Source: a bacterium (lineage in GTDB: Bacteria; SAR324; NAC60-12). From it: a stretch of 64,000 bases of DNA. The stretch spans positions 73,421-137,420 of the forward strand of contig CBDDTI010000295.1 in assembly GCA_965233585.1 (NCBI GenBank). The letters run 5' to 3'. Under the pieces are notes generated by a model that was not told the DNA's origin, ran no database searches, and saw nothing but the letters and a program-made list of their open reading frames with translations. A program made the position numbers and the translations under genes. Numbering within the stretch: the first letter of the stretch is position 1; every line of letters starts with the position of its first letter. This document shows, in pieces, positions 28,131 to 63,544 of this stretch.

Positions 28131-29381
28131 ATGAAACAGAATTTTAGCGCAAAATTATCCGCAATCCGCAATCCGCAATCCGCAATCCGCAATCCGCAAT
28201 CCGCAATCCGCAATCCGCAATCCGCAATCCGCAATCCGCAATCCGCAATCCGCAATCCGCAATCCGCAATCCGCAATCTATATAGGCTAACCCCGCTTTT
28301 TCAAAAGTCAAGACAAAAATGGAAATTCTTTGCGTTTTCGTCAAAAAATTCTCTCACCTACTCAAATCTCACTTCTTCAAACTCTTTCTCATTCTTCTCA
28401 CGATTTTTGCGATCTTTGCCTGTGGTAAAAATGGCTTTGATGATCGGAATTAGCTGGATGGCTGTTGGTTGTACGCTCCCTTTTGTTGCTCCTGGATTTG
28501 ATCCAACGCTCTACCCAAACCCACCAACCTACCCCAACAATTCATTATCAGAGCGAGCAGTCAAAGTACCACTCGGTTCAGAAGCATTTAGAGAAGGTTT
28601 ATTCGGTGCAAAATGGACACGAGGCGTCGAAATATTATGGTTTGATACAGATACTCTTGCTATTGCTTATCTAACTACTGAAGAATCTGAAGAAAAGGGA
28701 CAGAATGCCTTTTACTTTTCAGTGCCTAAAAACGCATTTATTGAAGGAGATTCAACTCTTTTTGATGCAATGGATAATTTTCGTAATCTCACTGAATTGA
28801 GTTACAAAAATGTGGATAGCACTGCCTCTCGTGCCCTCACTTTTTTGAGTGTTGCTGCAGGAAATGACAACTATCAGCCATGTATTGAATCTGAAAGTTC
28901 TCCAATTAGCACTTTGGATGGAAAATATTCAATAACCCTGTTGCTGTCAGACTATACTGGTGATGATTGCGATAGACCAACACAGGATGGTGATGGTATA
29001 TTTGATTACCAAGATATATACATGAGATACAGAATAAAAGGAGACAATTCAAAAAAAGAACTTATATTTACGAAGAAGTTTGAAAGTATTAGTCATTATA
29101 ATAGAGGACGTGGCGCCCGGACTATGTATCTTACAGAAGATAAAAAATATTTGGTTACGTCAAGGGGCATTGTTAGTCTTGATTCTCTCAAAATGATTGA
29201 TTATGCACCTACTTATCCTGAGGCAGACGGACTGCAGACTCGGACTCCACCCGCAATGTATGGAGCTTTTATTAGCCCAACTTTAGATAAGGTTGCCCTT
29301 TTGTATTACGTAGAAGATGCTAATTCAAAGACGGAATACTACCTAGAAATCACTGATTTTATTTTACCTGAAACGGAGTAG
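28131..29381 (+). CDS. Hypothetical lipoprotein-like protein with an N-terminal extension encoded through a heptanucleotide repeat
   Basis: ATG at 28131 with a strong SD (AAGGAG, 8-nt spacing). The frame runs through (CCGCAAT)17, read as (SAIRNPQ)n, into an internal signal/lipobox-like segment MALMIGISWMAVGC (from 28431) and a mature domain of about 300 aa with no family I recognise. Confidence 0.6.
   Translation: MKQNFSAKLSAIRNPQSAIRNPQSAIRNPQSAIRNPQSAIRNPQSAIRNLYRLTPLFQKSRQKWKFFAFSSKNSLTYSNLTSSNSFSFFSRFLRSLPVVKMALMIGISWMAVGCTLPFVAPGFDPTLYPNPPTYPNNSLSERAVKVPLGSEAFREGLFGAKWTRGVEILWFDTDTLAIAYLTTEESEEKGQNAFYFSVPKNAFIEGDSTLFDAMDNFRNLTELSYKNVDSTASRALTFLSVAAGNDNYQPCIESESSPISTLDGKYSITLLLSDYTGDDCDRPTQDGDGIFDYQDIYMRYRIKGDNSKKELIFTKKFESISHYNRGRGARTMYLTEDKKYLVTSRGIVSLDSLKMIDYAPTYPEADGLQTRTPPAMYGAFISPTLDKVALLYYVEDANSKTEYYLEITDFILPETE
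28157..28278 (+). repeat. Perfect heptanucleotide microsatellite (CCGCAAT)x17
   Basis: Hand count gives 28159-28277 = 119 nt = 17 exact units, plus partial units at both ends. The tract has no stop codon in any of the six frames. Confidence 0.95.
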
Positions 29382-30671: not shown

Positions 30672-31532
30672 TTAAAGGTTTTGGATTTGTTGTGGAGAGA
30701 GTCCAGTGATAGATTGAATCAAATCCATCTCCAATCCTTGAGCAAGCATCTTTTGAGCAATGTCAAGTTTCTCTTCTTGTCGTCCCTCTTCTCTTCCTTC
30801 TTCTCTTCCTTCTTGCTTACCTTTCTTCTCACCTAGCTCAATAGAGCTTTTTTGAATGGCAACAAACTCTTTTCTTTTGTGGTGGAGTTCTAACTCTTCA
30901 GATGTCATACCTGCTTCATTGACAATTTCTAAAGCCTTTTGGACAGAAGGATTGAAGGAATCAGGCACAAGATCAAACTCTTCAGCATGCTTGACAAAAT
31001 AAATCCACTGATCTTGGAGTTCCTGTAAGTCTTCAAAGTTTTTTTGAAACTTGGGAAGTTCAATAAAGACCAGTTCAATCTCCCCTGAATATTCAGTAAG
31101 CTGTTCTTTTTCCAATAACCTGAAACAGTTGATAAGTCTATCATTGTTGTCAAACATGACAAAATCCACCACACTGACAGCAATGACAGGCTTGAGCAAG
31201 TGATACTGACTTCCTGTAACCAACTGCATAGAATACTTTTTACAAGCATTGTAGAGGACTCGTTTCTCAAAGCCATCATGGTTGATGACTTGCATCTCAA
31301 TCATCACCTGCTCACCTGTGCTTAATGTGGCTTTGACATCTACATAGCTGTCTTTCATACCTTTGAGCAAAGGCGGATTGTAAGGGTCTTGAATCGTCAA
31401 ATCTTCAATCTTTTCATCATTTTGAAAAGTTAAAATAGAATTGAGGAAGCTGAGCAGAAGGTCTTGGTGCTTGGCATTACCAAAGACCATCTTGAAAGCA
31501 TAATCTGTTTTGACATCTAAAAAACGCATCAC
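30672..31532 (-). CDS. Rpn-family recombination-promoting nuclease / PD-(D/E)XK putative transposase, copy 1
   Basis: 286 aa. N-terminus MRFLDVKTDYAFKMVFGN...LLSFLN, and DSYVDVKA...IEMQV (PD-(D/E)XK core). The C-terminal helical tail (KLDIAQKMLAQGLEMDLIQSITGLS) is typical of YhgA/Rpn-like proteins. Confidence 0.8.
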   Translation of the reverse strand: MMRFLDVKTDYAFKMVFGNAKHQDLLLSFLNSILTFQNDEKIEDLTIQDPYNPPLLKGMKDSYVDVKATLSTGEQVMIEMQVINHDGFEKRVLYNACKKYSMQLVTGSQYHLLKPVIAVSVVDFVMFDNNDRLINCFRLLEKEQLTEYSGEIELVFIELPKFQKNFEDLQELQDQWIYFVKHAEEFDLVPDSFNPSVQKALEIVNEAGMTSEELELHHKRKEFVAIQKSSIELGEKKGKQEGREEGREEGRQEEKLDIAQKMLAQGLEMDLIQSITGLSPQQIQNL

Positions 31533-31560: not shown

Positions 31561-32427
31561 TTATTTAATAAGGTTTTGGATTTGTTGTTGAGAGAGTCCA
31601 GTGATAGATTGAATCAAATCCATCTCCAATCCTTGAGCAAGCATCTTTTGAGCAATGTCAAGTTTCTCTTCTTGTCGCCCTTCTTCTCTTCCCTCTTCTC
31701 TTCCTTCTTGCTTTCCTTTCTTCTCACCTAACTCAATAGAGCTTTTTTGAATGGCAACAAACTCTTTTCTTTTGTGATGGAGTTCTAACTCTTCAGCTGT
31801 CATACCTGCTTCATTGACAATTTCTAAAGCCTTTTGGACAGAAGGATTGAAGGAATCAGGCACAAGATCAAACTCTTCAGCATGCTTGACAAAATAAATC
31901 CACTGATCTTGGAGTTCCTGTAAGTCTTCAAAGTTTTTTTGAAACTTGGGAAGTTCAATAAAGACCAATTCAATCTCCCCTGAATATTCAGTAAGCTGTT
32001 CTTTTTCCAATAACCTGAAACAGTTGATGAGTTTGTCAGTGTTATCAAACATGACAAAATCCACCACACTGACAGCAATGACAGGCTTGAGCAAGTGATA
32101 CTGACTTCCTGTAACCAACTGCATAGAATACTTTTTACAAGCATTGTAGAGGACTCGTTTCTCAAAGCCATCATGGTTGATGACTTGCATCTCAATCATC
32201 ACCTGCTCACCTGTGCTTAATGTGGCTTTGACATCTACATAGCTGTCTTTCATACCTTTGAGCAAAGGCGGATTGTAAGGGTCTTGAATCGTCAAATCTT
32301 CAATCTTTTCATCATTTTGAAAAGTTAAAATAGAATTGAGGAAGCTGAGCAGAAGGTCTTGGTGCTTGGCATTACCAAAGACCATCTTGAAAGCATAATC
32401 TGTTTTGACATCTAAAAAACGCATCAC
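31561..32427 (-). CDS. Rpn-family recombination-promoting nuclease / PD-(D/E)XK putative transposase, copy 2
   Basis: 288 aa. It differs from copy 1 at only a handful of residues (NNDR/NTDK, S/A, C-terminal tail). The tandem unit of about 890 bp includes about 35 bp of 5' leader. Confidence 0.8.
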   Translation of the reverse strand: MMRFLDVKTDYAFKMVFGNAKHQDLLLSFLNSILTFQNDEKIEDLTIQDPYNPPLLKGMKDSYVDVKATLSTGEQVMIEMQVINHDGFEKRVLYNACKKYSMQLVTGSQYHLLKPVIAVSVVDFVMFDNTDKLINCFRLLEKEQLTEYSGEIELVFIELPKFQKNFEDLQELQDQWIYFVKHAEEFDLVPDSFNPSVQKALEIVNEAGMTAEELELHHKRKEFVAIQKSSIELGEKKGKQEGREEGREEGRQEEKLDIAQKMLAQGLEMDLIQSITGLSQQQIQNLIK

Positions 32428-48730: not shown

Positions 48731-48795
48731 TTTAAAAAGAAGCCTATCAAACATAGACTTCTTCAAAAATTGAAAGTCTTTTTCAAGACAAAGAT

Positions 48796-50241
48796 TTATC
48801 CAAGTAAGGACAACACCATCTGGTCTTTGGTGTTTGCCTGTGCCAGCATAGCGGTTGCCGATTGCATCATAATCTGATTCTTGGTGAAGGTTGTCATCTC
48901 TTCTGCCATGTCTGTATCACGAATCACAGACTCTGCAGAGATTAGGTTTTCACTAGCCACACGCAGATTGTTGAGATTACTTTGCAAGGTGTTTTTTTGG
49001 AATGCCCCAAGCTTTCCACGTTCTATGGTCGTTTCTTCTATCGCTTGGTCTATGATACTTAATGAATCCTGTGCAGAACGAAAGGACGTCACATCTACTT
49101 CTTCCAAAGATTTGATGTCACTGACGTTCTCCAGTCCTTTCCCCAATGCAGAAGGCGCCATGTTTCTTAACGACACAGCGATCGTTTGACCTTCATTTGC
49201 ACCAATTTGAAATTGCAATGAATTTTGAAACACTGACACAGTCCCTGCAATTTGGGCTTGTCCTTCTGAAATGGCTTCTCCGTTATAACGAACGGCAAGC
49301 CCTGCAATGTTGGGTGCATTGTCTTTGCCTGTTAAAATCTGCCCACGACCGACGGCATCTTCCCCGTTGATTGTGCCTTTGACGTCTGCTCCTCTCTCTG
49401 CTTCCTGTGTGACATTACCTATGTCAGACAACACACCCCCCGTCTCTGATGACACCGAAAAAGAGTTCTCACTCCCGTATTCTTGATGCGTCAATGTGAC
49501 ACTTCCATTGTCATTCTTAGAGACCTCTATCTTCAGTCCTGCGGCTGCAATTTTAGATTTCAGTTCATTGATGTTGCTGTCCAGATTCTCTCCTGCAATG
49601 GTTGTGAAAGAGACAGTTTTACCCCCCTCACTGACAGTGAGAGTTTCCCCATCATCTATCAGCTGTTGAGTCAAAGCCACACTACCTGTGACAGAAGTCT
49701 TAGATGCCACTTGCGAAATCTCAACATCATAACCCTCTATGGGTGATGTGTTGGTGTTGGGTCCTGCAGAGACAAACTGCAGACCTTCTCCATTTGCCAC
49801 TCCGTTTGCACCACGACTGCCATTGAGCAGTTGCTTTTTGCCAAATTGGGTGTTTTGGGCAATTCTTTCAATGGTAGCAAGGGCATTGTCTATCTCTGCT
49901 TGGTCTGCCTCAAGCATCTTTTCATCGTTCACACCTGTATTGCTGGCATGAATAGCAAGCTGACGAACATCTACAAGCAGCTTATTCACTTCTTGCAATG
50001 CTCCTTCTGCGGTTTGCACCATAGAAATCCCACTTTCAGAGTTGTCTATCGCTTGTTCAAGTCCTGCAATCTGCGCTCGCATTTGCTCTGAAATCACAAG
50101 CGATGCAGGACCATCTGCGGCACGATTGATCTTCTCCCCAGATGAAAGTTTTTCTAGGGTTTTGGCTGAATTAAACGCAGCACTCCCTAATTGACGCTGC
50201 GTGTTGATGGCACTAATATTGTGTTTGATTCTAAACATCAT
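48796..50241 (-). CDS. fliC: Flagellin, C-type paralogue 1 (481 aa)
   Basis: LEKLSSGEKINRAADGPASL...; the N- and C-terminal thirds are near-identical to 51061..52506 and 53320..54762. Confidence 0.95.
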   Translation of the reverse strand: MMFRIKHNISAINTQRQLGSAAFNSAKTLEKLSSGEKINRAADGPASLVISEQMRAQIAGLEQAIDNSESGISMVQTAEGALQEVNKLLVDVRQLAIHASNTGVNDEKMLEADQAEIDNALATIERIAQNTQFGKKQLLNGSRGANGVANGEGLQFVSAGPNTNTSPIEGYDVEISQVASKTSVTGSVALTQQLIDDGETLTVSEGGKTVSFTTIAGENLDSNINELKSKIAAAGLKIEVSKNDNGSVTLTHQEYGSENSFSVSSETGGVLSDIGNVTQEAERGADVKGTINGEDAVGRGQILTGKDNAPNIAGLAVRYNGEAISEGQAQIAGTVSVFQNSLQFQIGANEGQTIAVSLRNMAPSALGKGLENVSDIKSLEEVDVTSFRSAQDSLSIIDQAIEETTIERGKLGAFQKNTLQSNLNNLRVASENLISAESVIRDTDMAEEMTTFTKNQIMMQSATAMLAQANTKDQMVLSLLG

Positions 50242-50262
50242 AACCTCCTTGGTTTGATTGAA

Positions 50263-50278
50263 ATGCTATCCATAGCAT
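50263..50278 (-). promoter_or_regulatory. 5'-leader hairpin presenting GGA in the loop (AUGCUAUGGAUAGCAU), candidate CsrA-type binding site
   Basis: A perfect inverted repeat 12 nt upstream of the AAGGAGG SD. Homologous hairpins with compensatory stem changes occur at 52527-52542 and 54787-54802. Confidence 0.45.
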
Positions 50279-50304
50279 AAAAAAACCCCTGATACATTCA
50301 AAGG
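50279..50304 (-). terminator. Hairpin plus U-run at the end of repeat array 1 (terminator/attenuator-like)
   Basis: RNA sense: CCUUUGA-AUGUA-UCAGGGG followed by UUUUUUU. The 7-bp stem has two G-U pairs and lies immediately 5' of the leader hairpin. Confidence 0.3.
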
Positions 50305-50330
50305 CAACTTAAAAATTGTAAATTGTGAAT

Positions 50331-51011
50331 GGTTAAATCTATTTATCCGTTGTCATTAGACACTCCTCCCTGAATCTCTCATCAAAAAACTAGAGACTCT
50401 TAAAAAATGCTCCTTCCTCTTCTCCAATCCTTTCCAGAGACAAAGAAGAAACTCAAAAAAAACAAAAATCCAAAAAACTCCTCACGTTCTGATGACTTTT
50501 GTCAAATCCGTTGATCCATTGTCAAAGACACGTCTCCCTGAATCTCTCATCAAAAAACTAGAGACTCCTAGAAAATGCTCCTTCCTCTTCTGCAATCCTT
50601 TCCAGATTGAAAGAAGAAGAAGCTCAACAAAACAAAAATCCAAAAAACTCCTCACGTTCTGACGACTTTTGTCAAATCCATTTATCCGTTGTCATTAGAC
50701 ACTCCTCCCTGAATCTCTCATCAAAAAACTAGAGACTCCTAAAAAATGCTCATTCCTCTTCTCCAATCCTTTCCAGAGACAAAGAAGAAACTCAAAAAAA
50801 ACAAAAATCCCAAAAAACTCCTCACGTTCTGACGACTTTTTGTCAAATCCGTTGATCCATTGTCAAAGACACGTCTCCCTGAATCTCTTAATCAAAACAT
50901 CACGGACTCCTAAAAACTGCGGTTCGCTCTCCAATCCTTGCCAGAAACAAAGAAGAAGAAACTCAACAAAACAAAAATTCCAAAAAACTCCTCACGTTCT
51001 GATGAATTTTT
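50331..51011. repeat. Tandem array 1: four units of about 170 bp between flagellin paralogues
   Basis: Unit starts (gtcaaatcc-type motif) at about 50332, 50501, 50671 and 50842, with a degenerate fifth start at about 51013. Two unit subtypes alternate (ccgttgatccattgtcaaagacacg vs ccatttatccgttgtcattagacac). Confidence 0.9.
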
Positions 51012-51060
51012 TGTCAGCATCAAGCAAAGACTTCCTGCCTGATGCCAATTCAAAAATCCA

Positions 51061-52506
51061 TCAGCTTAATAAGGAAAGCACCATCTGGTCTTTGGCGTTT
51101 GCCTGTGCCAGCATGGCGGTTGCTGATTGCATCATAATCTGATTCTTGGTGAAGGCTGTCATCTCTTCTGCCATGTCTGTATCGCGGATCACAGACTCTG
51201 CTGAAACCAAGTTTTCATTTGCCACACGCAAGTTGTTGAGATTACTTTGCAAGGTATTCTTTTGGAATGCCCCGAGCTTTCCACGTTCTATGGTCGTTTC
51301 TTCTATCGCTTGGTCTATGATATTCAAGGAATCCTGTGCAGAACGAAAGGACGTCACATCTACTTCTTCCAAAGATTTGATGTCACTGACGTTCTCCAGT
51401 CCTTTCCCCAATGCAGAAGGCGCCATGTTTCTTAAAGACACCGCAATCGTTTGACCTTCATTTGCTCCGATTTGAAATTGCAATGAGTTCTGAAACACTG
51501 ACACAGTCCCTGCAACTTGAGATTGCCCCTCTGGAATAGCTGCTCCATTGTAACGAACAGCAAGCCCTGCAATGTTGGGTGCATTGTCTTTGCCTGTTAA
51601 AACTTGCCCACGACCGACGGCATCTTCCCCGTTGATTGTTCCTTTGACGTCTGCTCCTCTCTCGGCTTCCTGCGTGACATTACCGACGGTGGACAAAACA
51701 CCATTTGTCTCTGATGCCACTGAAAAAGAATGCTCGCTTCCGTATTCTTGATGCGTCAATGTGACACTTCCATTGTCATTCTTAGAGACGTCTATCTTCA
51801 GTCCTGCAGCTGCAATTTTAGACTTCAGTTCATTGATGTTACTGTCCAGATTCTCTCCTGCAATGGTTGTGAAGGAGACAGTTTTACCACCTTCACTGAC
51901 AGTGAGAGTTTCCCCATCATCTATCAGCTGTTGAGTCAAAGCCACACTACCTGTGATGGACGTTTTAGTGGCAACTTGAGAGATGTCAACATCATAGCCT
52001 TCCACAGGCGATGTATTGGTGTTGGGTCCTGCAGAGACAAACTGCAGACCTTCTCCATTGGCAACTCCGTTTGCACCACGACTGCCGTTGAGCAGTAGCT
52101 TCGTTCCAAACTGAGTGTTTTGGGCAATTCTTTCAATGGTAGCAAGGGCATTGTCTATCTCTGCTTGGTCTGCCTCCAGCATTTTTTCATCGTTCACACC
52201 TGTATTGCTGGCATGAATGGCAAGCTGACGAACATCTACAAGCAACTTATTCACTTCTTGCAATGCTCCTTCTGCCGTTTGCACCATAGAAATCCCACTT
52301 TCCGAGTTGTCTATCGCTTGCTCAAGTCCCGCAATCTGCGCCCGCATTTGCTCTGAAATCACAAGCGATGCAGGACCATCTGCGGCACGATTGATCTTCT
52401 CCCCAGATGAAAGTTTTTCTAGGGTTTTGGCTGAATTAAATGCAGCGATCCCTAATTGACGCTGCGTGTTGATGGCACTAATATTGTGTTTGATTCTAAA
52501 CATCAT
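51061..52506 (-). CDS. fliC: Flagellin, C-type paralogue 2 (481 aa)
   Basis: Same conserved termini as paralogue 1. The differences cluster in the central variable domain. Confidence 0.95.
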   Translation of the reverse strand: MMFRIKHNISAINTQRQLGIAAFNSAKTLEKLSSGEKINRAADGPASLVISEQMRAQIAGLEQAIDNSESGISMVQTAEGALQEVNKLLVDVRQLAIHASNTGVNDEKMLEADQAEIDNALATIERIAQNTQFGTKLLLNGSRGANGVANGEGLQFVSAGPNTNTSPVEGYDVDISQVATKTSITGSVALTQQLIDDGETLTVSEGGKTVSFTTIAGENLDSNINELKSKIAAAGLKIDVSKNDNGSVTLTHQEYGSEHSFSVASETNGVLSTVGNVTQEAERGADVKGTINGEDAVGRGQVLTGKDNAPNIAGLAVRYNGAAIPEGQSQVAGTVSVFQNSLQFQIGANEGQTIAVSLRNMAPSALGKGLENVSDIKSLEEVDVTSFRSAQDSLNIIDQAIEETTIERGKLGAFQKNTLQSNLNNLRVANENLVSAESVIRDTDMAEEMTAFTKNQIMMQSATAMLAQANAKDQMVLSLLS

Positions 52507-52526
52507 AACCTCCTTGGTTGATTAAA

Positions 52527-52542
52527 ATGCGTTCCATCGCAT
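52527..52542 (-). promoter_or_regulatory. 5'-leader hairpin with GGA loop (AUGCGAUGGAACGCAU)
   Basis: Stem AUGCG/CGCAU, loop AUGGAA, 12 nt upstream of the AAGGAGG SD. Confidence 0.45.
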
Positions 52543-52567
52543 AAAAAGCCCCCGATACATTCAAAGG
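52543..52567 (-). terminator. Hairpin plus U-run at the end of repeat array 2 (terminator/attenuator-like)
   Basis: RNA sense: CCUUUGA-AUGUA-UCGGGGG then CUUUUU. This is the homologue of 50279-50304, with one substitution that keeps pairing as G-U. Confidence 0.3.
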
Positions 52568-52588
52568 CACTTAAAAAAATTGTGAATT

Positions 52589-53262
52589 GTCAAATCCATT
52601 TATCCGTTGTCAAAAGACACTTCTCCCTGAATCTCTCATCAAAACATCAGAGACTCCTAAAAACTACAGTTCGCTCTCCAATCCTTTCCAGAGACAAAGA
52701 AAAAGAAGCTCAAAAACAAAAATCCTAAAAAGCTCTTTGCGTTCTTATGACTTTTGTCAAATCCATTTATCCGTTGTCAAAAGACACTTCTCCCTGAATC
52801 TCTCATCAAAACATCAGAGACTCTTAAAGCTGGAGACTCCTAAAAAATGCTCCTCCCCTTTCCAGTCCTATACAGATTGAAATAAGAAGAAGAAACTCAA
52901 AAAAACCTTGCGTTCTTATGACTTTTGTCAAATCCATTTGACCGTTGTCAAAAGACACTTCTCCCTGAATCTCTCATCAAAACATCAGAGACTCTTGAGA
53001 CTACTCTTAAAAAATGCTCCTCCTCCTCTCCAATCCTTTCCAGAGACAAAGAAAAAGAAGCTCAAAAAAACCTTGCGTTCTTACGACTTTTGTCAAATCT
53101 ATTTATCCGTTGTCAAAAGACACTTCTCCCTGAATCTCTCATCAAAACATCACAGACTCTTAAAGCTGGAGACTCCTAAAAAATGCTCCTCCCTCCTCTC
53201 CAATCCTTTCCAGAGACAAAGAAAAAGAAGCTCAAAAACAAAAATCCCGAAAAGTTGATTGC
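52589..53262. repeat. Tandem array 2: four units of about 165-171 bp between flagellin paralogues
   Basis: Unit starts at 52589, 52756, 52927 and 53092. The units are homologous to array 1 but carry unit-specific indels. Confidence 0.9.
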
Positions 53263-53319
53263 GTTTGATTTTTTCAGGATCAAACGACAACCTTCCGTCT
53301 GATGCAAATTTAAAATCTA

Positions 53320-54762
53320 TTAACTCAATAAGGAAAGCACCATCTGGTCTTTGGCGTTTGCCTGTGCCAGCATCGCAGTTGCAGATTGCATCATAATCTG
53401 ATTTTTGGTGAAGGCTGTCATCTCTTCTGCCATGTCTGTATCACGAATCACAGACTCTGCTGAAGTTAAGTTTTCACTAGAAACCCTAAGGTTGTTCAGG
53501 TTGCTTTGTAATGTGTTTTTCTGGAATGCCCCAAGTTTCCCTCGTTCCATAGTCGTTTCTTCTATCGCTTGGTCTATGATATTCAAGGAATCCTGTGCAG
53601 ACCGAAAGGACGTCACATCTACCTCTTCTAGGGATTTGATGTCACTGACGTTCTCTATTCCTTTTCCCAGTGCAGAAGGCGCCATGTTTCTTAAAGACAC
53701 GGCGATTGTTTGACCTTCATTTGCACCAATTTGGAATTGCAATGAGTTCTGAAACACTGACACAGTCCCTGCATTTTTGGTCTGTCCTTCTGGAATGGCA
53801 GCTCCATTGTAACGAACAGCAAGCCCTGCGATGTTGGGTGCATTGTCTTTGCCTGTTAAAATCTGCCCACGACCGACGGCATCTTCTCCGTTGATTGTGC
53901 CTTTGACGTCTGCACCCCGTTCTGCTTCTTCTGTCACATTACCTACGGTGGACAACACACCTGCTGTCTCTGATGCCACTGAAAAAGAATGCTCGCTTCC
54001 GTATTCTTGATGCGTCAGTGTAATCGCACCAAGGTCTGTTCTGGAGACATCTATCTTCAGACCTGCGGCGGCAATTTTAGACTTCAGCTCATTGATGTTG
54101 CTGTCCAGATTCTCTCCTTTGAGAGTGGTGAACGAAACGGTTTTGCCCCCTTCGCTGACAGTGAGAGTTTCCCCATCATCTATCAGTTGTTGAGTCAAAG
54201 CCACACTGCCTGTGGTGGTCGTTTTAGTGGAAACTTGAGAGATGTCCACATCATAGCCTTCCACAGGCGATGAGTTCGTTGTTGGTCCTGCAGAGACAAA
54301 TTGTAAGCCCTCTCCATTCGCCACGCCGTTTGCACCACGACTGCCATTGAGCAGTAGCTTTGTTCCAAACTGGGTGTTTTGGGCAATTCTTTCAATGGTG
54401 GCAAGTGCGTTGTCTATCTCTGCTTGGTCTGCCTCAAGCATCTTTTCATCGTTCACACCTGCGTTGCTGGCATGAATCGCTAACTGGCGAACATCTACAA
54501 GTAATCTGTTGACTTCTTGCAAGGCGCCTTCTGCTGTTTGCACCATGGAAATCCCACTTTCAGAGTTGTCTATCGCTTGCTCAAGTCCTGCAATCTGCGC
54601 TCGCATTTGCTCTGAAATCACAAGCGATGCAGGACCATCTGCGGCACGATTGATCTTCTCCCCAGATGAAAGTTTTTCTAGGGTTTTAGCTGAGTCAAAT
54701 GCTGCATTCCCTAATTGACGTTGTGTATTGATTGCACTGATGTTGTGTTTAATTCTAAACAT
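53320..54762 (-). CDS. fliC: Flagellin, C-type paralogue 3 (480 aa)
   Basis: Same family, with conserved termini. Confidence 0.95.
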   Translation of the reverse strand: MFRIKHNISAINTQRQLGNAAFDSAKTLEKLSSGEKINRAADGPASLVISEQMRAQIAGLEQAIDNSESGISMVQTAEGALQEVNRLLVDVRQLAIHASNAGVNDEKMLEADQAEIDNALATIERIAQNTQFGTKLLLNGSRGANGVANGEGLQFVSAGPTTNSSPVEGYDVDISQVSTKTTTTGSVALTQQLIDDGETLTVSEGGKTVSFTTLKGENLDSNINELKSKIAAAGLKIDVSRTDLGAITLTHQEYGSEHSFSVASETAGVLSTVGNVTEEAERGADVKGTINGEDAVGRGQILTGKDNAPNIAGLAVRYNGAAIPEGQTKNAGTVSVFQNSLQFQIGANEGQTIAVSLRNMAPSALGKGIENVSDIKSLEEVDVTSFRSAQDSLNIIDQAIEETTMERGKLGAFQKNTLQSNLNNLRVSSENLTSAESVIRDTDMAEEMTAFTKNQIMMQSATAMLAQANAKDQMVLSLLS

Positions 54763-54786: not shown

Positions 54787-54802
54787 ATGCTGTCCATAGC
54801 AT
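54787..54802 (-). promoter_or_regulatory. 5'-leader hairpin with GGA loop (AUGCUAUGGACAGCAU)
   Basis: Stem AUGCU/AGCAU, loop AUGGAC, upstream of the GAGGU SD. Confidence 0.4.
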
Positions 54803-54846
54803 GACAAAGTTCTTTTGAATCATTCAAAAAAACGTTTAAAAATTCA

Positions 54847-56007
54847 TTAAATTTGAGCTGGGGTGTCAGATGCGTTGCTTAAAATTGAAAGCATGGCTTG
54901 TTCATTCTGCACCCGATTTTCTTCCCCGATGCTGGTTTTTTGGGGCTTTGACCCTGCCAGCAACATAAATCCTGTCATTTGCAATGTTTTGATGGATTCT
55001 TCCATCTGTTGAATGTCATTGTTCATCTGTCTCAACATGTGTTGACACAGTTTTTGTGCTTGAATTTCTGGCAAGCTGGGCAGTTGTAGCATGTTGTACC
55101 ACTGCCCATCGCTAAGCACTCCTCCTAAATCGCAAGGATTCAGCGATGGAATTTGCATAGACAAAGGCTCGTCTTGATGTTCTAAATTGCCAATCAGCCG
55201 CTTTGTTCCATCTTGAATCGTTAACAATTCCTCGCCTGAAAATCCCCCATACCATAAGATATGCGTTTCATGGTCTGTCATCTGGTTGCCTTCCCATAAA
55301 GCGTGCATGCCATTGATTTTGGCACTTCCTAATTTGCCAACTTTTGACGTTTGCATGATGCCCGGTGCCACAGAAATCAGGGCTGTCTTTTCACTGTAAC
55401 CAAAGAAAAGGACTTGCGATTTGGACAAATGCTGAATTTTTAAAAATCCTTCTTGGTTGATAGTCAAGTCAAGTGACAATCCCTTCTGAAAAATCATGCG
55501 TTGAGCGCCTAGTAAAAAGCTCTCAATGGTTTCATCTGGTGCAAGACAATACACTGCCGTTTTGCCCCCTTCATAAAATCCAACATACGTCTCATTGCGG
55601 AGTAGCTTTTGAGTCAAAGGGACTGAGCCGTACAAAACACTTGGAATTGGTGCTTTGACAGTTTGCACACGAATTGTCTGACCATGCCTCATGTGTAGCG
55701 GTATTTTGACCGCTCTGCAAACTTGTCCTTTTGCCAAAAGCTGAAAGCGACCATCTAGCAACATGTCTCCTTCAAAGTGAGTGGTTTTGAGCCTCCTAAG
55801 CATGTTTTGATGCAGTGTTTCAAAGCTGGCACTTTCAAAGTCTTCAGACAGTGCTTTCAATTCTTTTTGAGTTTTTTTGAATTGAAAGAGTGCATTTTGT
55901 AGGCTGGAGACCGATTTTTCTATCTGTTCCAATAGTTCATTAGAACCTAAAAAATCTAACGACTCCCTCCACAAGACTTGCTTGGGTTTTAATAATTTTC
56001 TTTCCAC
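54847..56007 (-). CDS. Flagellin-like protein lacking the conserved N- and C-terminal D0 segments
   Basis: 386 aa with a GTG start and an AAGAGG SD. The central part parallels the flagellin variable domain: EGGKT...GLSLDL...LKIQH...ING..A..G versus EGGKT...GLKIEV...VTLTH...INGEDAVGRG. A D1-like stretch is present (TTHFEGDMLLDG vs NTQFGTKLLLNG). The LSSG.KIN..ADGPA N-terminus and the ..LAQAN C-terminus are absent. Confidence 0.6.
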   Translation of the reverse strand: MERKLLKPKQVLWRESLDFLGSNELLEQIEKSVSSLQNALFQFKKTQKELKALSEDFESASFETLHQNMLRRLKTTHFEGDMLLDGRFQLLAKGQVCRAVKIPLHMRHGQTIRVQTVKAPIPSVLYGSVPLTQKLLRNETYVGFYEGGKTAVYCLAPDETIESFLLGAQRMIFQKGLSLDLTINQEGFLKIQHLSKSQVLFFGYSEKTALISVAPGIMQTSKVGKLGSAKINGMHALWEGNQMTDHETHILWYGGFSGEELLTIQDGTKRLIGNLEHQDEPLSMQIPSLNPCDLGGVLSDGQWYNMLQLPSLPEIQAQKLCQHMLRQMNNDIQQMEESIKTLQMTGFMLLAGSKPQKTSIGEENRVQNEQAMLSILSNASDTPAQI

Positions 56008-56161: not shown

Positions 56162-56400
56162 AGCGAACGCAAAAAGCCCTGAATACTCTTAAAATTGAGT
56201 ACTCACGGCATTCTTTCATCTCCTTTCTTCTTTCTAATTTTTAATTTTTAGCAAACGCAAAAAGCCCTGAATACTCTTAAAATTGAGTACTCACGGCATT
56301 CTTTAACCTTCTTTCTAATTTTTAATTTTTAGCAAACGCAAAAAGCCCTGAATACTCTTAAAATTGAGTACTCACGGCATTCTTTCATCTTCTTTTCTCA
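56162..56400 (-). terminator. Three tandem copies (81-88 bp) of an intrinsic-terminator module downstream of fliS
   Basis: Each unit reads, in RNA sense, GCCGUGAGUACUC-AAUUUUAA-GAGUAUUCAGGGC followed by UUUUUG. That is a 13-bp stem with one mismatch and one G-U. Unit starts on the plus strand are at 56162, 56250 and 56331. Confidence 0.65.
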
Positions 56401-60300: not shown

Positions 60301-60639
60301 CTTTGCTCGTTGAGTGGCTGTTGGAAAGATGACAGAAGGGTCGCTTGACTCAACATTCTTGGCTTCCCAGACATCAAATTTGCGGAGTTCCTTGATCACT
60401 GCATAGAGTTTTTCTAACTCTGTCTTCACAATCTGCCACGATTCAAGTTGCGTCAATTTTTCATCTTTACGTTTTTGAATCGGGACGGCTTTGCGCTTTT
60501 CTATGTCAACGAAGCGTCCAATAATCTCACGGGTGTTCAGCTGGGAGCCTAAACCCATGATGGCATTGGGATTCAGTTCTGCGGCCAAGTGTTCCTTATG
60601 TTTAGAAGTATCGGCAAAATCTGCCGTGTTCGTCTGCAC
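57358..60639 (-). CDS. fliD: Flagellar filament capping protein FliD, unusually long (up to 1093 aa)
   Basis: FliD N-terminal helix (GLGSQLNTREIIGRFVDIEKRKAVPIQKRKDEKLTQLESWQ) and C-terminal domain/helix (..GRGQILSG..GLRLFV.., LQVKFAKLDSTLGKLKAQQNYLSQQF). The start is uncertain: GTG at 60639 has no SD, and TTG at about 60588 or ATG at 60558 are alternatives. Confidence 0.85.
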   Translation of the reverse strand: MQTNTADFADTSKHKEHLAAELNPNAIMGLGSQLNTREIIGRFVDIEKRKAVPIQKRKDEKLTQLESWQIVKTELEKLYAVIKELRKFDVWEAKNVESSDPSVIFPTATQRAKVGKTKVIVDQLALSHQITSQGFESPDESVGVGRIKLQVGDPEKNPEETILISRNNNTLEGIRSAINSESKYVEAFVIKTGSSEKPYQLMLTSKITGEEGRINVEIDLKNGKVPPPLYENSYDTDPEWEGEAVLEVGTDSKRWGASTPIVEAAGKYTGEDDLDISVSVSQGGVINSESGIILSWKDNQGRSGDIEVNERTYKPGEPIHIVDGAAIMVSDGEAQLGDSFTFQAFSERSNWLWWLSDEERLSRVGNVSAWRTQDDRGQVRATGTYTSEVDQTLVLRAEDGGQVGGPKKLFLHYEFTETGETGKVNIGAPYLSETIDDTSLEDAIGYDFEDDEGLFKLDFNTFGENASKIKLPHGVEIEIPPGILHDGDTATIDLFAPVNSDFWWFDDEMRSRDGIIDTESKFEPFDPDREHDLKVQDGLLDLMRRRSTADIKVSGIYDQDDEKTYIFTMQGDGTVGTTRNLQLQWEDNLGNTGSVAVGADYQPGVPIPFDSGLSIALDGGLVFEEDYFFVTTQTPTVQQAQNAKLRLGASETGGGLEITRPSNIVDDVIEGVELELLTTSDNRPITITVKGDHERARELLRDFVDAYNTLSATVTEFTKYDPGSQVAGPLLSDRNVVQMQNEIANTSILAVPELPSSTNMLFSVGLRLDDKGMMSLDEKKLDEKMTDSFTDVANVFRTRGESDNPRVSYLNITDKTQLTKNGFEVQITQAAKKSELIGELLDDGDPIVVNEQNDELIVIERGRRSNPIQLDQKTYSSAQALAQQIQQKLNEDKKLGSRKIEVTTENGALKFVSGSFGKSSTIEVEPNANKELDSLGLENTTQVEGVDVAGIVEGWEMTGRGQILSGVVDTPVEGLRLFVEMTPEEVKSADKQAKVLVSKGIASRLDESIQAMLDPAEGRVKNVTKDIQEQVKAYDDQLKRMNERVDAKRGELQVKFAKLDSTLGKLKAQQNYLSQQFAALSGNKGGGGNKKKG

Positions 60640-60775: not shown

Positions 60776-62563
60776 TTAAGATTGCGCACCTCCAAGCAGT
60801 TGTAGAACAGACTGAGGTACTTGATTAGCTTGTGCAAGCATGGCTGTTCCTGCTGAAAATAAGATTTGATTCTTGGTGAAAGAACTCATCTCTTCTGCCA
60901 TATCGGCATCAGCCAGTTCAGACTCTGCTGCAGTCAAATTTTCGTGTGCAATTCGCAAGCTGTTTAAGTTGCTCTCCAGTGCATTTTTTTGGAATGCACC
61001 CACTTTTGCACGGAGCGTTGACACTTCGTCAATCGCAGCATCTATCAAAGTCATTGCATCTTGAGCACCTTCTGAAATAGTGACGTCAATGTCTGCAAGA
61101 CTTTGGAATTGGTTTTGATTTTCAATATTTCTGGCAAGGTCGCTTGCTCTGGCAGACCCTACTGCAATTTTGGTTTGTTGCCCCTGACTTGGTCCAACTT
61201 GGAAGGCTAAAGCACCTTGTGTCAAGTGGACGTAGCCGTCAATCTTAGCATTTTCTCCATTGGGCTTCTCATTGCCAATTAACGTTTCATTAGAGCGGAC
61301 ATCAAGCAATGTTTTAGGCGTTTGAAAGCCACGCAAGGCAAGGACTTGATAAAGGACATCATCTGTGTCTTTGGTGTATTTGATGGCTAAGCCTTCTGCC
61401 TCTGAACCTGGGGCAGACTCTAACACGTTTCCATTTCCAAGAGCAGGCTCACCCAAATCTAATTCGGGGTGTCCTCCAATTGTGCCTTCAATGTCTCTGC
61501 CAGGACTTGCAATGATTGCCTTATTTGCCTGCGTTCCTTGTCCAAAAAAATCATTCAACGTTGTTGTGACAGTAAAACTTGGCATACTTCCAAATTCACG
61601 ATGCCGAATGACGAGGATTTTTTCATCAGTTTGTGGCAAGCCTTCAGGGACTCTTGCCACTTCGTTCAAAAATTCTTGGGTCATATCCCATGTTTGAGTG
61701 ACCTCTCCATAAAAGTTAGCAGGTGTGTAAACCATCACTTCAAGGTTCAAGCCTGCTTCATCAATCCTGCCTTGTAGCGAAGTGGTAATCAGATGTTGAA
61801 TAGTTTCTTCTGCTTGACGCTTCGCCTGTTGTTCAACAGCAGGGTCAGTGCCTTTTTTCTGTTGAGCAGCAAAATAAATGCGTTGAATTTTTTCAGAGAG
61901 TTTTTTGTCTTTGTGAATCTCCAAGCTGGCATTTTTGCCTTCTGATGTGACAACAATAGAAAAGTTACTTTCGGGAGACACTTCATCTAATGTCAAACGA
62001 TGTTGTGCTGCCACCATTGCCCTTGTTGGAATCTGTGTGATGTTCACTTTGTAACCTTCTGAAGGCGAGGCAGGGGTGTCTTCAGTTGCTGCAACAAATT
62101 CTATCCCATCGCCAACGGCAATGCCTTTGATGGCATTTTGTCCATCTAACAAACGGCGTGTGCCAAATTGCGTGTTGTCTGCAATTTGATTGAGTGTAGA
62201 AAGCAGATGTTCAATTTCACTTTGGTCTGCTTGCAACATTTTTATATCGTTTGTGCCTTCGTTTGCTGCATGCACTGCAAGCTGTCTTAAATTAATCAAG
62301 ATGTTACTGGCTTCTTGTAATGCACCTTCCATCGTTTGCATCATAGAAACAGAAGTTTCAGAGTTAGAAATCGCTTGCTTGGTAGAGGCAATTTGGGACT
62401 GCATCTGCTCAGAGATGACCAATGCCGCAGGGCTGTCAGCCGCACGATTCAACTTTCTACCTGAAGAAAGACGTTCAAGATTTGTCTGAATGCGTCCCTC
62501 TGTTGTAGATAAATGCCTTAAGGCATTCAAAGCAGCTAAATTCGTATTGACTCTCATGACCAT
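60776..62563 (-). CDS. fliC: Flagellin, long form (595 aa)
   Basis: LERLSSGRKLNRAADSPAAL...; C-terminus ..TKNQILFSAGTAMLAQAN... The central domain is enlarged. Confidence 0.92.
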   Translation of the reverse strand: MVMRVNTNLAALNALRHLSTTEGRIQTNLERLSSGRKLNRAADSPAALVISEQMQSQIASTKQAISNSETSVSMMQTMEGALQEASNILINLRQLAVHAANEGTNDIKMLQADQSEIEHLLSTLNQIADNTQFGTRRLLDGQNAIKGIAVGDGIEFVAATEDTPASPSEGYKVNITQIPTRAMVAAQHRLTLDEVSPESNFSIVVTSEGKNASLEIHKDKKLSEKIQRIYFAAQQKKGTDPAVEQQAKRQAEETIQHLITTSLQGRIDEAGLNLEVMVYTPANFYGEVTQTWDMTQEFLNEVARVPEGLPQTDEKILVIRHREFGSMPSFTVTTTLNDFFGQGTQANKAIIASPGRDIEGTIGGHPELDLGEPALGNGNVLESAPGSEAEGLAIKYTKDTDDVLYQVLALRGFQTPKTLLDVRSNETLIGNEKPNGENAKIDGYVHLTQGALAFQVGPSQGQQTKIAVGSARASDLARNIENQNQFQSLADIDVTISEGAQDAMTLIDAAIDEVSTLRAKVGAFQKNALESNLNSLRIAHENLTAAESELADADMAEEMSSFTKNQILFSAGTAMLAQANQVPQSVLQLLGGAQS

Positions 62564-62597: not shown

Positions 62598-62627
62598 GTA
62601 TCGGCAGACTTTCAATTTGCTTGAGCT
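62598..62627 (-). promoter_or_regulatory. sigma28 (FliA)-type promoter P1 for the long flagellin
   Basis: The minus strand reads TCAAGCAA-N11-GCCGATAC, against the consensus TAAAGTTT-N11-GCCGATAA. The -10 lies at 62598-62605, about 35 nt upstream of the ATG. Confidence 0.5.
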
Positions 62628-62669: not shown

Positions 62670-62696
62670 GTATCGGCACAAATCACAAAAACATGA
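62670..62696 (-). promoter_or_regulatory. sigma28 (FliA)-type promoter P2, upstream duplicate
   Basis: The minus strand reads TCATGTTT-N11-GCCGATAC. The -35 matches 6/8 and the -10 matches 7/8 of consensus. Confidence 0.5.
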
Positions 62697-62769: not shown

Positions 62770-63544
62770 GGGCAGTGTTCACTTGATATTGGCATTGCAT
62801 GTGAGAGTAAATTTGAGGAATGGAAATGAGAAGTTGTCATCATTGTGGGAGTCAGACTTATATCAAGAATGGAAGTTACAAAGGGGTTCAGAGGTATCGT
62901 TGCAAGTCATGTCAGAGAGCATTCACCTCAAATGGGTTGAGAATCCCACTAGAGACCAAGCGTCAAGCCTTAGAGATGTATGTCAATAGTGTAGGCATCA
63001 GAAAGATCGCTCGTTTTTTGCAGGTGTCTCCAACTTCTGTTCTCAACTGGATCAAAAAAGCCAGAGTGTCTCAACTTCCAAAAGACGCACCAAGTTTCCA
63101 TGAACAAGTAGATAGTATAGAGATGGATGAGATCTACACTTTTGTTCAAAAAAAAGTCAAAGAGTAGCCGTTTGGACAGCCTATTCTCGTCAAGAACAAT
63201 GTGTGATTGCCTTTGTGATAGGCAAAGGATTAGCAGCAGCAAAGCAGCTGTATGCACTAGTCAAAGCACAACGAGCTAGAATTGAAACGATTTATACAGA
63301 TGCCAACTCATGCTATCAAGTGGCATTTGCACAACTCCAAATTCCAGAGAACCACGAAATAGGCAAGAGAAATACTCATCTCATTGAATCTTCTAATTCT
63401 TCCATCAGAGATAACCTAGCTCGCTTGATGAGAAAATCTAAACGACATTCCAAAACTTTTGACATGCTGGAACACTCTCTACAACTCTTCTTTGACTATA
63501 AAAGGTTTGAAAAATATCATGACAATACCAAGTGAACACTGCCC
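62770..63544 (+). mobile_element. Second, divergent IS1-family insertion sequence (775 bp)
   Basis: Terminal inverted repeats GGGCAGTGTTCACTTG(A/G)TATTG(G/T)CAT lie at 62770-62796 and, reverse-complemented, at 63518-63544; the first 16 nt are perfect. I found no flanking direct repeat (ctctagta vs gttttcac). Confidence 0.85.
62820..63535 (+). CDS. IS1-family transposase (InsA-like plus InsB-like, putative -1 frameshift at the A8 run 63148-63155)
   Basis: ORF 62820..63167 (CHHCGS...YRCKSCQRAF zinc finger, then HTH). The -1 frame continues KKSQRVAVWTAYSRQEQCVIAFVIGKG... into ORF 63203..63535. Confidence 0.8.

Follow-up and report, generated by a model that had tools for sequence, protein, structure and literature searches.

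The flagellin genes fla3 and fla4 of a SAR324 bacterium are separated by a spacer that is almost entirely a tandem array, crowded with GGA triplets on the flagellin-sense strand. The locus therefore raises the question whether this array acts as a sponge for a translational repressor of the CsrA type, or whether it is a by-product of repeat amplification. Here we address this question in a 64,000-nt stretch of one contig (the window), complemented by the equivalent spacers of SAR324-clade relatives.

Array structure and coding potential

A preliminary description of the spacer proposed a four-unit tandem array with a period of about 170 bp. Indeed, Tandem Repeats Finder (TRF) detected the repeat at 50345-51010 (period 170, 3.9 copies, 86% matches; also as period 339 with 2.0 copies), and unit alignment defined the array as 50337-51020. 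On the minus strand the units span 50847-51020, 50676-50846, 50506-50675 and 50337-50505, corresponding to 174, 171, 170 and 169 nt. The arrays and their surroundings are composed as follows:

48736..48764, minus strand: intrinsic terminator of canonical form, 3' of fla3 (12-bp stem and U-run)
48796..50238, minus strand: fla3, flagellin downstream of array 1 (Pfam Flagellin_N/C; start at the second ATG; dS comparison)
50337..51020, minus strand: array 1, four tandem units with about 8-11 GGA each on the flagellin-sense strand (TRF, unit alignment, GGA counts)
51017..51045, minus strand: stable hairpin directly after the fla4 stop codon
51061..52503, minus strand: fla4, flagellin upstream of array 1 (Pfam Flagellin_N/C)
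52594..53275, minus strand: array 2, homologous four-unit sister of array 1, between fla5 and fla4 (TRF, unit alignment, identity matrix)
53320..54762, minus strand: fla5, flagellin upstream of array 2 (Pfam Flagellin_N/C)

Units of array 1 and array 2 are 80-86% identical to each other. In the identity matrix the units group by array, and A1U2 and A1U4 of array 1 share 97.6% identity. Judged by these identities, the duplication within array 1 is very recent and the array is young. Outside the two arrays no copy of the unit was recovered in the 64-kb window or in the related loci, and the exact or degenerate unit pattern gave 0 matches in a metagenome collection; a dispersed intergenic repeat of the REP/BIME/MITE kind was rejected on this basis.

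The array was also said to be non-coding, with small ORFs that are not conserved, and this is what we find. Reading frames of 20-57 codons vary from unit to unit in array 1, the unit lengths differ by non-multiples of three, and the plus-strand ORFs have no Pfam match. A protein-coding repeat, sense or antisense, was thus rejected. Searches against Rfam yielded no match to CsrB, CsrC, RsmX/Y/Z or any other family across the whole window at gathering thresholds, and only chance-level matches, none of them relevant, for 50150-53400 at E<=5.

GGA content and strand bias

An earlier hand count of 41 TCC and a single GGA on the plus strand of 50341-51060, which places the GGA triplets on the flagellin-sense strand, was exact on recount, and array 2 contains 37 TCC and 3 GGA on the same strand. 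Elsewhere in the window, long intergenic regions show no such bias (10 GGA and 9 TCC in 1082 bp; 10 and 9 in 810 bp), hence the strand asymmetry is special to the flagellin spacers. The sense strand of the arrays is poor in C (11-12%) and rich in G (26%, as compared to 17-20% in other intergenic DNA). With 43 GGA in 822 nt (52/kb), the density is comparable to that of Escherichia coli CsrB (22 in 369 nt, 60/kb).

The proposed comparison with dinucleotide-shuffled controls revealed an excess beyond composition. The 41 TCC compare to 22.9 +/- 3.1 in shuffles (maximum 34 in 1000), an approximately 1.8-fold enrichment with a z of about 6 that is partly inflated because the four copies are not independent. 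After collapse of the repeats, 25 GGA remain against 16.9 expected (z 3.1), and A-N-GGA, with A at position -2 of the triplet, is found 13 times against 4.9 (z 4.0). The larger part of the array's GGA triplets is accounted for by dinucleotide composition. Within the unit, GGA sites do not stand out by conservation: their alignment columns have a mean identity of 0.863 as compared to 0.879 elsewhere; about six GGA or Shine-Dalgarno-like sites are conserved per unit, four of which fit A-N-GGA-N.

Predicted folding and GGA exposure

The array 1 spacer is predicted to fold far more stably as sense RNA (-249 kcal/mol, z -5.8) than as antisense RNA (-123 kcal/mol, z -1.8), supporting the flagellin-sense strand as the one relevant at the RNA level. 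The exposure of the GGA triplets is less sponge-like. Their mean probability of being unpaired is 0.33 in array 1 and 0.34 in array 2, against 0.33 and 0.32 in shuffles, whereas the same measure gives 0.77 for E. coli CsrB against 0.56 in its shuffles. In these models, the array GGAs are not preferentially unpaired, unlike those of CsrB, and many of them are locked in a polypyrimidine/polypurine hairpin. The suggestion that the GGAs are displayed in small hairpin loops thus survives for array 1 (16/43, z 4.1; CsrB, z 5.4), but neither for array 2 (5/37, z -0.5) nor in the pairing probabilities. The described hairpin following the fla4 stop codon was recovered with a predicted stability of -18.4 kcal/mol (z -4.3), and a homologous hairpin follows fla5; as a U-run is absent after it, the fla4 element is not a canonical terminator.

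A conserved CsrA-type leader

Between each array and the next flagellin gene lies a leader of about 80 nt; the leaders of fla3, fla4 and fla5 contain the following elements:

50244..50250, minus strand: fla3 Shine-Dalgarno AAGGAGG, in a small loop (aacc-AAGGA-gguu), BS2-like
50263..50278, minus strand: fla3 leader hairpin 2, AUGCU-AUGGAU-AGCAU, GGA in the hexaloop, CsrA BS1-like
50279..50305, minus strand: leader hairpin 1, GCCUUUGA-AUGUA-UCAGGGG, with U7, terminator-like
52527..52568, minus strand: fla4 leader, hairpin 1 with U5 at 52548-52568 and hairpin 2 (AUGCG-AUGGAA-CGCAU) at 52527-52542
54787-54802: fla5 leader hairpin 2, GGA hexaloop hairpin

The hairpin and U-run at 50279-50304, previously viewed as the end of the array, are present (stem-loop 50286-50305, U7 50279-50285) but form part of this conserved leader. 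Hairpin 1 is maintained in relatives (L063) with compensatory changes, and its U-run is missing in L064 and at fla5.

Hairpin 2, with GGA in the hexaloop, is located 25-45 nt before the start codon of fla3, fla4, fla5 and nearly all SAR324-clade leaders examined. A second GGA overlaps the Shine-Dalgarno sequence of fla3 and fla4 (AAGGAGG at 52509-52515 in the latter); in relatives the Shine-Dalgarno is often placed inside a hexaloop (aauaauAAGGAGauuauu). In a set of hand-picked sequences aligned on the loop, 86.3% of the cells of hairpin 2 are paired, as compared to 54.3% in shuffles and 29-57% in slid controls, with 43 double-sided changes where shuffles give 14.3 (0/500). As a positive control, 20/21 Firmicutes flagellin leaders carry the same hairpin at -27 to -41, two lying nearer the start. 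Across eight loci of SAR324-clade relatives, 40 GGA-hexaloop hairpins were detected on the sense strand of the spacers, with 3.1 expected, and three on the antisense strand.

Overall, the leader looks like the BS1/BS2 layout of CsrA targets, namely an A-N-GGA-N hexaloop hairpin followed by a GGA-containing Shine-Dalgarno. CsrA-type control of these flagellins is well supported on comparative grounds, because the leader hairpin covaries, recurs in the Firmicutes leaders and is accompanied by the AAGGAGG sequence. The same architecture and position are found in the Bacillus subtilis hag leader, where BS1 is a hairpin, BS2 is at the Shine-Dalgarno and FliW provides the switch. This likeness concerns the leader adjoining the array rather than the array itself, and csrA and fliW gave no match by tblastn in the window or the fetched related loci L001-L004 (queries: E. 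coli and B. subtilis CsrA, and an approximate FliW). Some SAR324 genome papers do not mention CsrA or FliW, and csrA is encoded in only about 30% of bacterial genomes (PMC13443453).

Probable read-through from the upstream flagellin

Transcription of array 1 may be supplied by fla4. While fla3 is followed by a canonical terminator, fla4 and fla5 have none after their stop codons, and the first terminator-like element that a transcript from either would meet is leader hairpin 1, on the other side of the array. The fla4 transcript therefore probably runs into array 1. No convincing promoter for the array as an independent unit was detected.

Comparison with known CsrA antagonists

Multi-site sponge RNAs that antagonize CsrA are, to our knowledge, restricted to Gammaproteobacteria. 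Like CsrB, CsrC and RsmX-Z of that group, the array combines a high density of GGA on one strand with modular repeats and a lack of coding potential. Unlike them, it has no Rfam match, its GGAs are mostly predicted as paired rather than in loops, and it is located between two flagellin ORFs instead of forming an evident stand-alone gene. Its 170-nt units also differ from their hairpin modules of roughly 15-20 nt, and one would expect a SAR324-clade CsrA, if there is one, to be FliW-partnered.

Two antagonists of CsrA are known from FliW-type systems, namely the FliW protein and, in Campylobacter jejuni, the short flaA leader. Titration of CsrA by a flagellin transcript thus has a precedent: in C. 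jejuni, where sponge sRNAs are lacking, the flaA mRNA carries GGA hexaloop hairpins and is both target and titrator of CsrA (Dugar et al. 2016, PMC4894983). The leader hairpins of our locus fit the 'CANGGANG apical hexaloop' description of that mRNA. The titrator of C. jejuni is a short 5' leader with two hairpins, whereas the candidate here is a tandem array of about 680 nt outside the leader, between paralogous genes.

A candidate CsrA decoy or platform

The original interpretation of the array as a CsrA sponge is consequently only partly supported. The sense-strand location, the CsrB-like density and the CsrA-type leaders favor it, and the exposure and conservation of the GGA triplets and the situation in the closest relative speak against it. 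As the best of the readings, though less likely than not, we tentatively put forward that the array is a transcribed untranslated spacer serving as a CsrA decoy or platform. Arrays 1 and 2, recently amplified and non-coding, would then be transcribed on the flagellin-sense strand as a lengthy 3' tail of the preceding flagellin mRNA, as a far-upstream leader of the next one, or as both. A CsrA-type translational repressor would bind the A-N-GGA-N hexaloop hairpin and the GGA-containing Shine-Dalgarno of the leader, and the array would contribute about 40 additional GGA or Shine-Dalgarno-like motifs per spacer. These may represent decoy or landing sites of low to medium affinity for the repressor, and possibly for 30S subunits. 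By analogy to flaA of C. jejuni, the abundance of flagellin mRNA might in this way feed back on the free repressor available to the paralogous leaders.

Equivalent spacers in relatives and possible neutral amplification

In all relatives that were examined, flagellin paralogues are set apart by long spacers of 0.6-2.6 kb without genes. Tandem arrays of their own, unrelated in sequence to array 1 and with periods of 377, 315, 173, 115, 70, 41, 36 and 22 nt, are present in most of these spacers. The arrays of L064, L047, L067, L002 and L001 resemble array 1 in genomic position, sense-strand G over C bias and tandem build, but differ in sequence and period (22-377 nt), with mostly weak GGA enrichment; no tandem arrays are present in the spacers of L063, L068 and L003. 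A blastn comparison of the spacers to seven related loci returned only leader matches of about 80 nt. In the closest relative, L063 (89% flagellin identity), the unit is absent and the spacer has an ordinary GGA content. For most relatives, dinucleotide composition explains the GGA triplets (z -0.8 to 3.2), and across all of them G outnumbers C on the sense strand of almost every spacer. In L064, about ten canonical GGA-hexaloop hairpins are repeated inside the equivalent spacers, strongly strand-specifically. These flagellin spacers are hotspots where tandem repeats arise and disappear, a conclusion that holds even if array 1 is neutral.

Such turnover is what the main rival of the decoy reading builds on: DNA separating flagellin paralogues that are highly expressed and recombine would be a hotspot of tandem duplication and turnover, and the array junk from unequal crossing-over. 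The G over C and T over A bias of the sense strand would then stem from transcription-associated C-to-T change on the non-template strand, and the GGA content from composition and the chance content of the seed. The unrelated arrays of varied period in the same spacers, their absence in three relatives, the very recent duplication in array 1 with clustering of units by array, the lack of preferential conservation of GGA columns, the large compositional share of the GGA count and the confinement of the unit to the two arrays all agree with this view. It is less easily reconciled with gene-free spacers being kept in every relative, unexpected for useless bacterial DNA, or with the G content of the arrays, for which C-to-T bias alone is insufficient. 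Moreover, the A-N-GGA enrichment persists after repeat collapse, the L064 hairpins are strongly strand-specific, and the spacers, at 16.6% mismatches, show less divergence than the flanking flagellin genes do at synonymous sites (dS 0.29-0.54). We regard a neutral origin as nearly as likely as the decoy reading.

Other functional explanations

The array could also function as untranslated RNA in ways that do not involve titration of CsrA, such as Rho-resistant C-poor read-through to the next gene, recruitment of 30S subunits and mRNA stabilization via STAB-SD-like motifs, or a long leader for an attenuator formed by hairpin 1 and its U-run. Congruent with this are the C-poor, G-rich sense strand, shared as G over C by nearly all relatives' spacers, and the approximately two-fold enrichment of GGAGG and AGGAG across the spacers of seven species, the GGAGG excess being supplied in part by true Shine-Dalgarno sites inside the spacers. 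The location of hairpin 1, a weak but conserved terminator-like element, between the array and the region of ribosome binding, and the absence of the sigma-28 -10 motif GCCGATAC upstream of fla1-fla5 (it is present only at fla6 and fliD), point in the same direction. Any C-poor sequence would do for such a role, however, without a need for a tandem array, and the inconsistent U-run of hairpin 1 also speaks against it. We consider this group of functions unlikely.

A DNA-level role, with the units serving a flagellar transcription factor as promoter, enhancer or decoy sites, is suggested by the motifs TTGACAA-N13-TTGACAA and TGTC-N4-GACA, and by TTGACA-16-GACAAT, which array 2 carries in its last unit. 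Within the unit, the best conserved block contains TTGACAA/TGTC-type repeats, and the TTGACA-16-GACAAT site, at 52613-52586 on the junction of array 2 and leader, is the best sigma-70-like match in an 18-kb region. Internal units carry it in a weakened GACAAA form, and the last unit of array 1 matches less well. Promoter-like matches overall are at the level of shuffles (23 as compared to 25.3 expected), the sites show no conservation among relatives, and the extreme strand asymmetry and one-strand folding suggest causes that are RNA-level or linked to transcription. No sigma-54-type spacing was seen by eye in leaders or units, and a scan for TGGCAC-N5-TTGCA with three mismatches allowed returned 278 matches, too many to inform. 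A DNA-level role thus appears improbable.

Finally, an antisense CU-rich RNA from the plus strand, pairing via CUCC/UCCU with flagellin Shine-Dalgarno sequences, is very improbable: despite 18 CTCC on that strand in 50341-51060 (8.9 in dinucleotide shuffles) and a hexamer pair weakly resembling a promoter, located in the N-terminal coding regions of fla3 and fla4 and directed into the arrays, the RNA is poorly structured, lacks a terminator and, being C-rich and G-poor, would be a good substrate for Rho, and the hexamer pair is a 9/12 match at chance frequency within conserved coding sequence.

Implications for flagellin control in the SAR324 clade

A GGA-rich array on flagellin transcripts would represent a third route of CsrA antagonism. 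It would give a reason why kilobase-long gene-free flagellin spacers are kept in the SAR324 clade, as well as a means of balancing the translation of five or six flagellin paralogues. Extended to the clade, flagellin spacers may constitute a fast-evolving, cis-encoded RNA antagonist or buffer of FliW-type CsrA, carrying GGA arrays on flagellin transcripts that are re-formed in each species by tandem amplification (170-nt units here, about ten hexaloop hairpins in L064); this wider proposal we hold as rather doubtful. If true, it would be the first multi-site CsrA sponge RNA outside Gammaproteobacteria, and the first CsrA sponge to lie between genes that it helps to regulate. Should the array be neutral, it still holds that a CsrA-type leader hairpin is conserved at the flagellin genes of an uncultivated phylum.

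The repeat arrays and their flagellin setting

The flagellar cluster lies on the minus strand of the window, its gene order is kept in the relatives L064, L001, L067 and L068 (L numbers denote fetched flagellin loci), and the closest public flagellins carry the name SAR324 cluster bacterium. The flagellin paralogues fla1-fla6 are read from the minus strand, so that a plus-strand TCC is a sense GGA.

60776-62563, minus strand: fla6
minus strand: fliD and two fliS genes, part of the flagellar cluster
54847-56007, minus strand: gene for a 386-aa protein, between fliS and fla5
53320-54762, minus strand: fla5, followed by array 2
52594-53275: array 2, homologous sister array between fla5 and fla4, 37 TCC and 3 GGA
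51061-52503, minus strand: fla4, between array 2 and array 1
50337-51020, minus strand: array 1, four units of 174, 171, 170 and 169 nt in the flagellin-sense-strand alignment
48796-50238, minus strand: fla3, after array 1, then fla2 and fla1

The genes fla3, fla4 and fla5 share 87-92% DNA identity (dS 0.29-0.54). The 386-aa protein, kept at the same position in relatives and with no Pfam or NCBIfam match, lacks the flagellin N- and C-terminal helices; over 121 aa it is 28% identical (E 7e-11) to the central, variable domain of the flagellin next to it. Directly upstream of fla6, at 62820-63535, is an IS1-like transposase in two frames, its InsA/InsB-like ORFs recognised from translations alone; in L063 an IS605 OrfB (TnpB) fragment is directly upstream of a flagellin gene.

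The preliminary description had proposed a non-coding array of four units of about 170 nt, rich in sense-strand GGA and possibly serving as a CsrA sponge. Indeed, the array was borne out by Tandem Repeats Finder (period 170, 3.9 copies, 86% matches at 50345-51010, with a higher-order period of 339) and by unit alignment. Its hand count for the plus strand of 50341-51060 proved exact (41 TCC, 1 GGA), with 22.9 +/- 3.1 TCC in dinucleotide shuffles. Because the four units are copies of each other, the repeats were collapsed for a recount, giving 25 GGA against 16.9 expected (z 3.1) and 13 A-N-GGA against 4.9 (z 4.0). Elsewhere in the window, two long intergenic stretches show balanced GGA and TCC (10/9 and 10/9); G and C there are 17-20%, compared with 26% G and 11% C for the sense strand of the array. 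ORFs vary between units and unit lengths are mutually out of frame, congruent with a non-coding array; plus-strand ORFs of the array gave no Pfam matches.

The arrays of the window are dynamic, as units cluster by array: identity between array 1 and array 2 units is 80-86%, while units 2 and 4 of array 1 reach 97.6%, and the split of the latter pair is, judged from sequence, younger than the flagellin gene duplication. No further copy of the unit was found in the window, and neither the metagenome collection nor the fetched related flagellin loci held a match.

A conserved flagellin leader

A conserved leader represents the most solid result of the analysis. In most relatives the flagellin paralogues are preceded by a hairpin (hairpin 1) with the loop AAUGNNU, often then a U-run; about 10 nt beyond it a second hairpin of 5-6 bp presents the hexaloop A-N-GGA-N, followed by a Shine-Dalgarno AAGGAGG that is often looped itself.

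50286-50305, 52548-52568 and 54812-54828: hairpin 1, also in the leaders of L002, L047, L063 and L064
fla3: GGA-hexaloop hairpin AUGCU-AUGGAU-AGCAU
L001: GGA-hexaloop hairpins GUAAUC-AUGGAA-GAUUAC and CCAUUG-AAGGAG-CAAUGG
L003: GGA-hexaloop hairpin CAACAC-AUGGAG-GUGUUG

Across 17 instances the hexaloop stem is 86% paired versus 54% in shuffles (slid controls 29-57%), with 43 double-sided changes versus 14 (0/500 shuffles), figures that lean towards structure since the instances were picked and aligned by eye. As positive control, an identical scan recovered the hairpin in 20 of 21 Firmicutes flagellin leaders, drawn from the same search as the relatives' loci, mostly 27-41 nt upstream of the start and in two cases nearer to it. 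The CsrA-FliW-Hag circuit of Firmicutes acts on the hag leader through sites BS1 and BS2 (PMC13443453), and the motif found here agrees with the "CANGGANG apical hexaloop" of C. jejuni flaA (PMC4894983). Thus, on the leader evidence (hexaloop hairpin, Shine-Dalgarno, Firmicutes control and flaA match), CsrA-type translational control of the flagellins is very probable. Moreover, spacer sense strands of eight SAR324-clade loci hold 40 GGA-hexaloop hairpins against 3.1 expected and 3 on the antisense (1.71/kb in spacers, 0.07/kb background). Neither csrA nor fliW was found by tblastn in the window or the searched related loci, the FliW query being approximate.

Hairpin 1 has variable stems and a recurrent loop motif AAUG(N)(N)U, always stands about 10-15 nt ahead of the GGA hexaloop hairpin and matches no Rfam family; it could serve as an attenuator or as a further specific binding site.

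The sigma-28-type -10 motif GCCGATAC occurs four times in the window versus 0.19 expected, including the minus-strand sites 62598-62605, 62670-62677 and 60608-60615; two are placed upstream of fla6 and one at the fliD start, and the window scan gave none upstream of fla1-fla5, so the paralogues appear, by motif placement, to differ in promoters. The L064 fla6 orthologue bears TAAAG-N15-GCCGATAC.

Spacers of the relatives

By flagellin identity the closest relative is L063 (89%), followed by L064 (81%), L001, L002 and L067 (71%), L047 and L068 (66%), and L003 and L004 (52-53%). All have gene-free spacers of 0.6-2.6 kb between flagellin paralogues, with more G than C in the sense orientation, and most carry tandem arrays of their own, unrelated in sequence and period; none was found in the flagellin spacers of L063, L068 and L003.

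L064: 377 nt x 2.7
L047: 173 nt x 2, 115 nt x 5, 70 nt x 1.9, 22 nt x 8
L067: 315 nt x 2.1
L002: 41 nt x 5, 58 nt x 1.9
L001: 18-39-nt units

Between the window and L063 spacers, conservation is confined to the ~80 nt directly upstream of the start codon (83-89% identity). For most relatives spacer GGA content is accounted for by dinucleotide composition, a point against the sponge claim; pooled over seven species, 517 GGA stand against 445 expected, an excess that is real but small.

Sponge or by-product

The sponge claim fared unevenly. In its favor, GGA density matches that of CsrB, the E. coli CsrA sponge RNA, the strand bias is strong, A is enriched at -2 of GGA, the pattern A-N-GGA-N fits four of the six GGA sites that are best conserved in each unit (AAGGAU, AGGGAG, ACGGAU, AUGGAU), and folding is far more favourable for the sense RNA than for the antisense. 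A canonical terminator is present after fla3 and missing after fla4 and fla5, and the fla4 and fla5 transcripts should therefore cross the arrays up to hairpin 1. The L064 spacers add about 10 copies of the canonical hairpin ggaaguc-AUGGAC-gauuuuc, with 15 hexaloop hairpins in total versus 0.5 expected, a cleaner sponge-like pattern than the array of the window. Written out at greater length this hairpin reads uuuuggaaguc-AUGGAC-gauuuucuaaaa, and its copies lie at L064 11459-13557 and 15016-15870.

Exposure of the motifs, however, argues against a sponge: array GGAs are paired as in shuffles, with a predicted P(unpaired) of 0.33-0.34 versus 0.77 in CsrB (10/22 GGA in hairpin loops of its minimum-energy fold), and many are predicted to be locked within a polypyrimidine/polypurine hairpin. 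An excess of GGA able to occupy small loops was seen for array 1 (16/43, z 4.1) but not for array 2 (5/37, z -0.5). GGA columns show no extra conservation over other columns in the unit, and the L063 spacer, without a tandem array, has 18 GGA/kb (z 0.1). Membership of the CsrB/Rsm families was rejected by structure and homology.

Taken together, the evidence favors reading the array as a young untranslated spacer, presumably transcribed, in a flagellin family under CsrA-type regulation. Of the hypotheses that fit, a role as CsrA decoy or platform is the most specific, and is put forward tentatively. Neutral amplification is nearly as likely, if still doubtful. Another RNA-level role (Rho-resistant read-through spacer, 30S recruitment or attenuator leader) is improbable, and an array of DNA-level sites even less likely.

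Other repeats in the window

Array 3 (81-nt unit x 2.7; 56162-56395, minus strand, between fliS and the 386-aa gene) bears a strong terminator-like hairpin in each unit (GCCGUGAGUACUC...GAGUAUUCAGGGC plus U-run), and thus three tandem terminators; a similar hairpin, '...AGUAUUCAGGG', lies in the L063 flagellin spacer. A perfect repeat of the heptanucleotide ATCCGCA (17.4 copies, 28157-28278) begins 26 nt past the ATG of ORF 28131-29381, a candidate phase-variable gene, as slippage in a unit that is not a multiple of 3 would shift the frame; L004 has a similar repeat, (CGTTATT) x 12. Repeats of 12 nt (CTTCTTCTCTTC) at 30773-30834 and 31668-31725 sit in the adjacent paralogous minus-strand ORFs 30672-31532 and 31561-32427, and ORF 2098-4218 contains a 285-nt x 1.8 repeat.

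Implications

Titration of CsrA by flagellin mRNA is a concept already known (PMC4894983). If true, the novelty of the present case would be an array of several units placed between flagellin paralogues of a FliW-type lineage.
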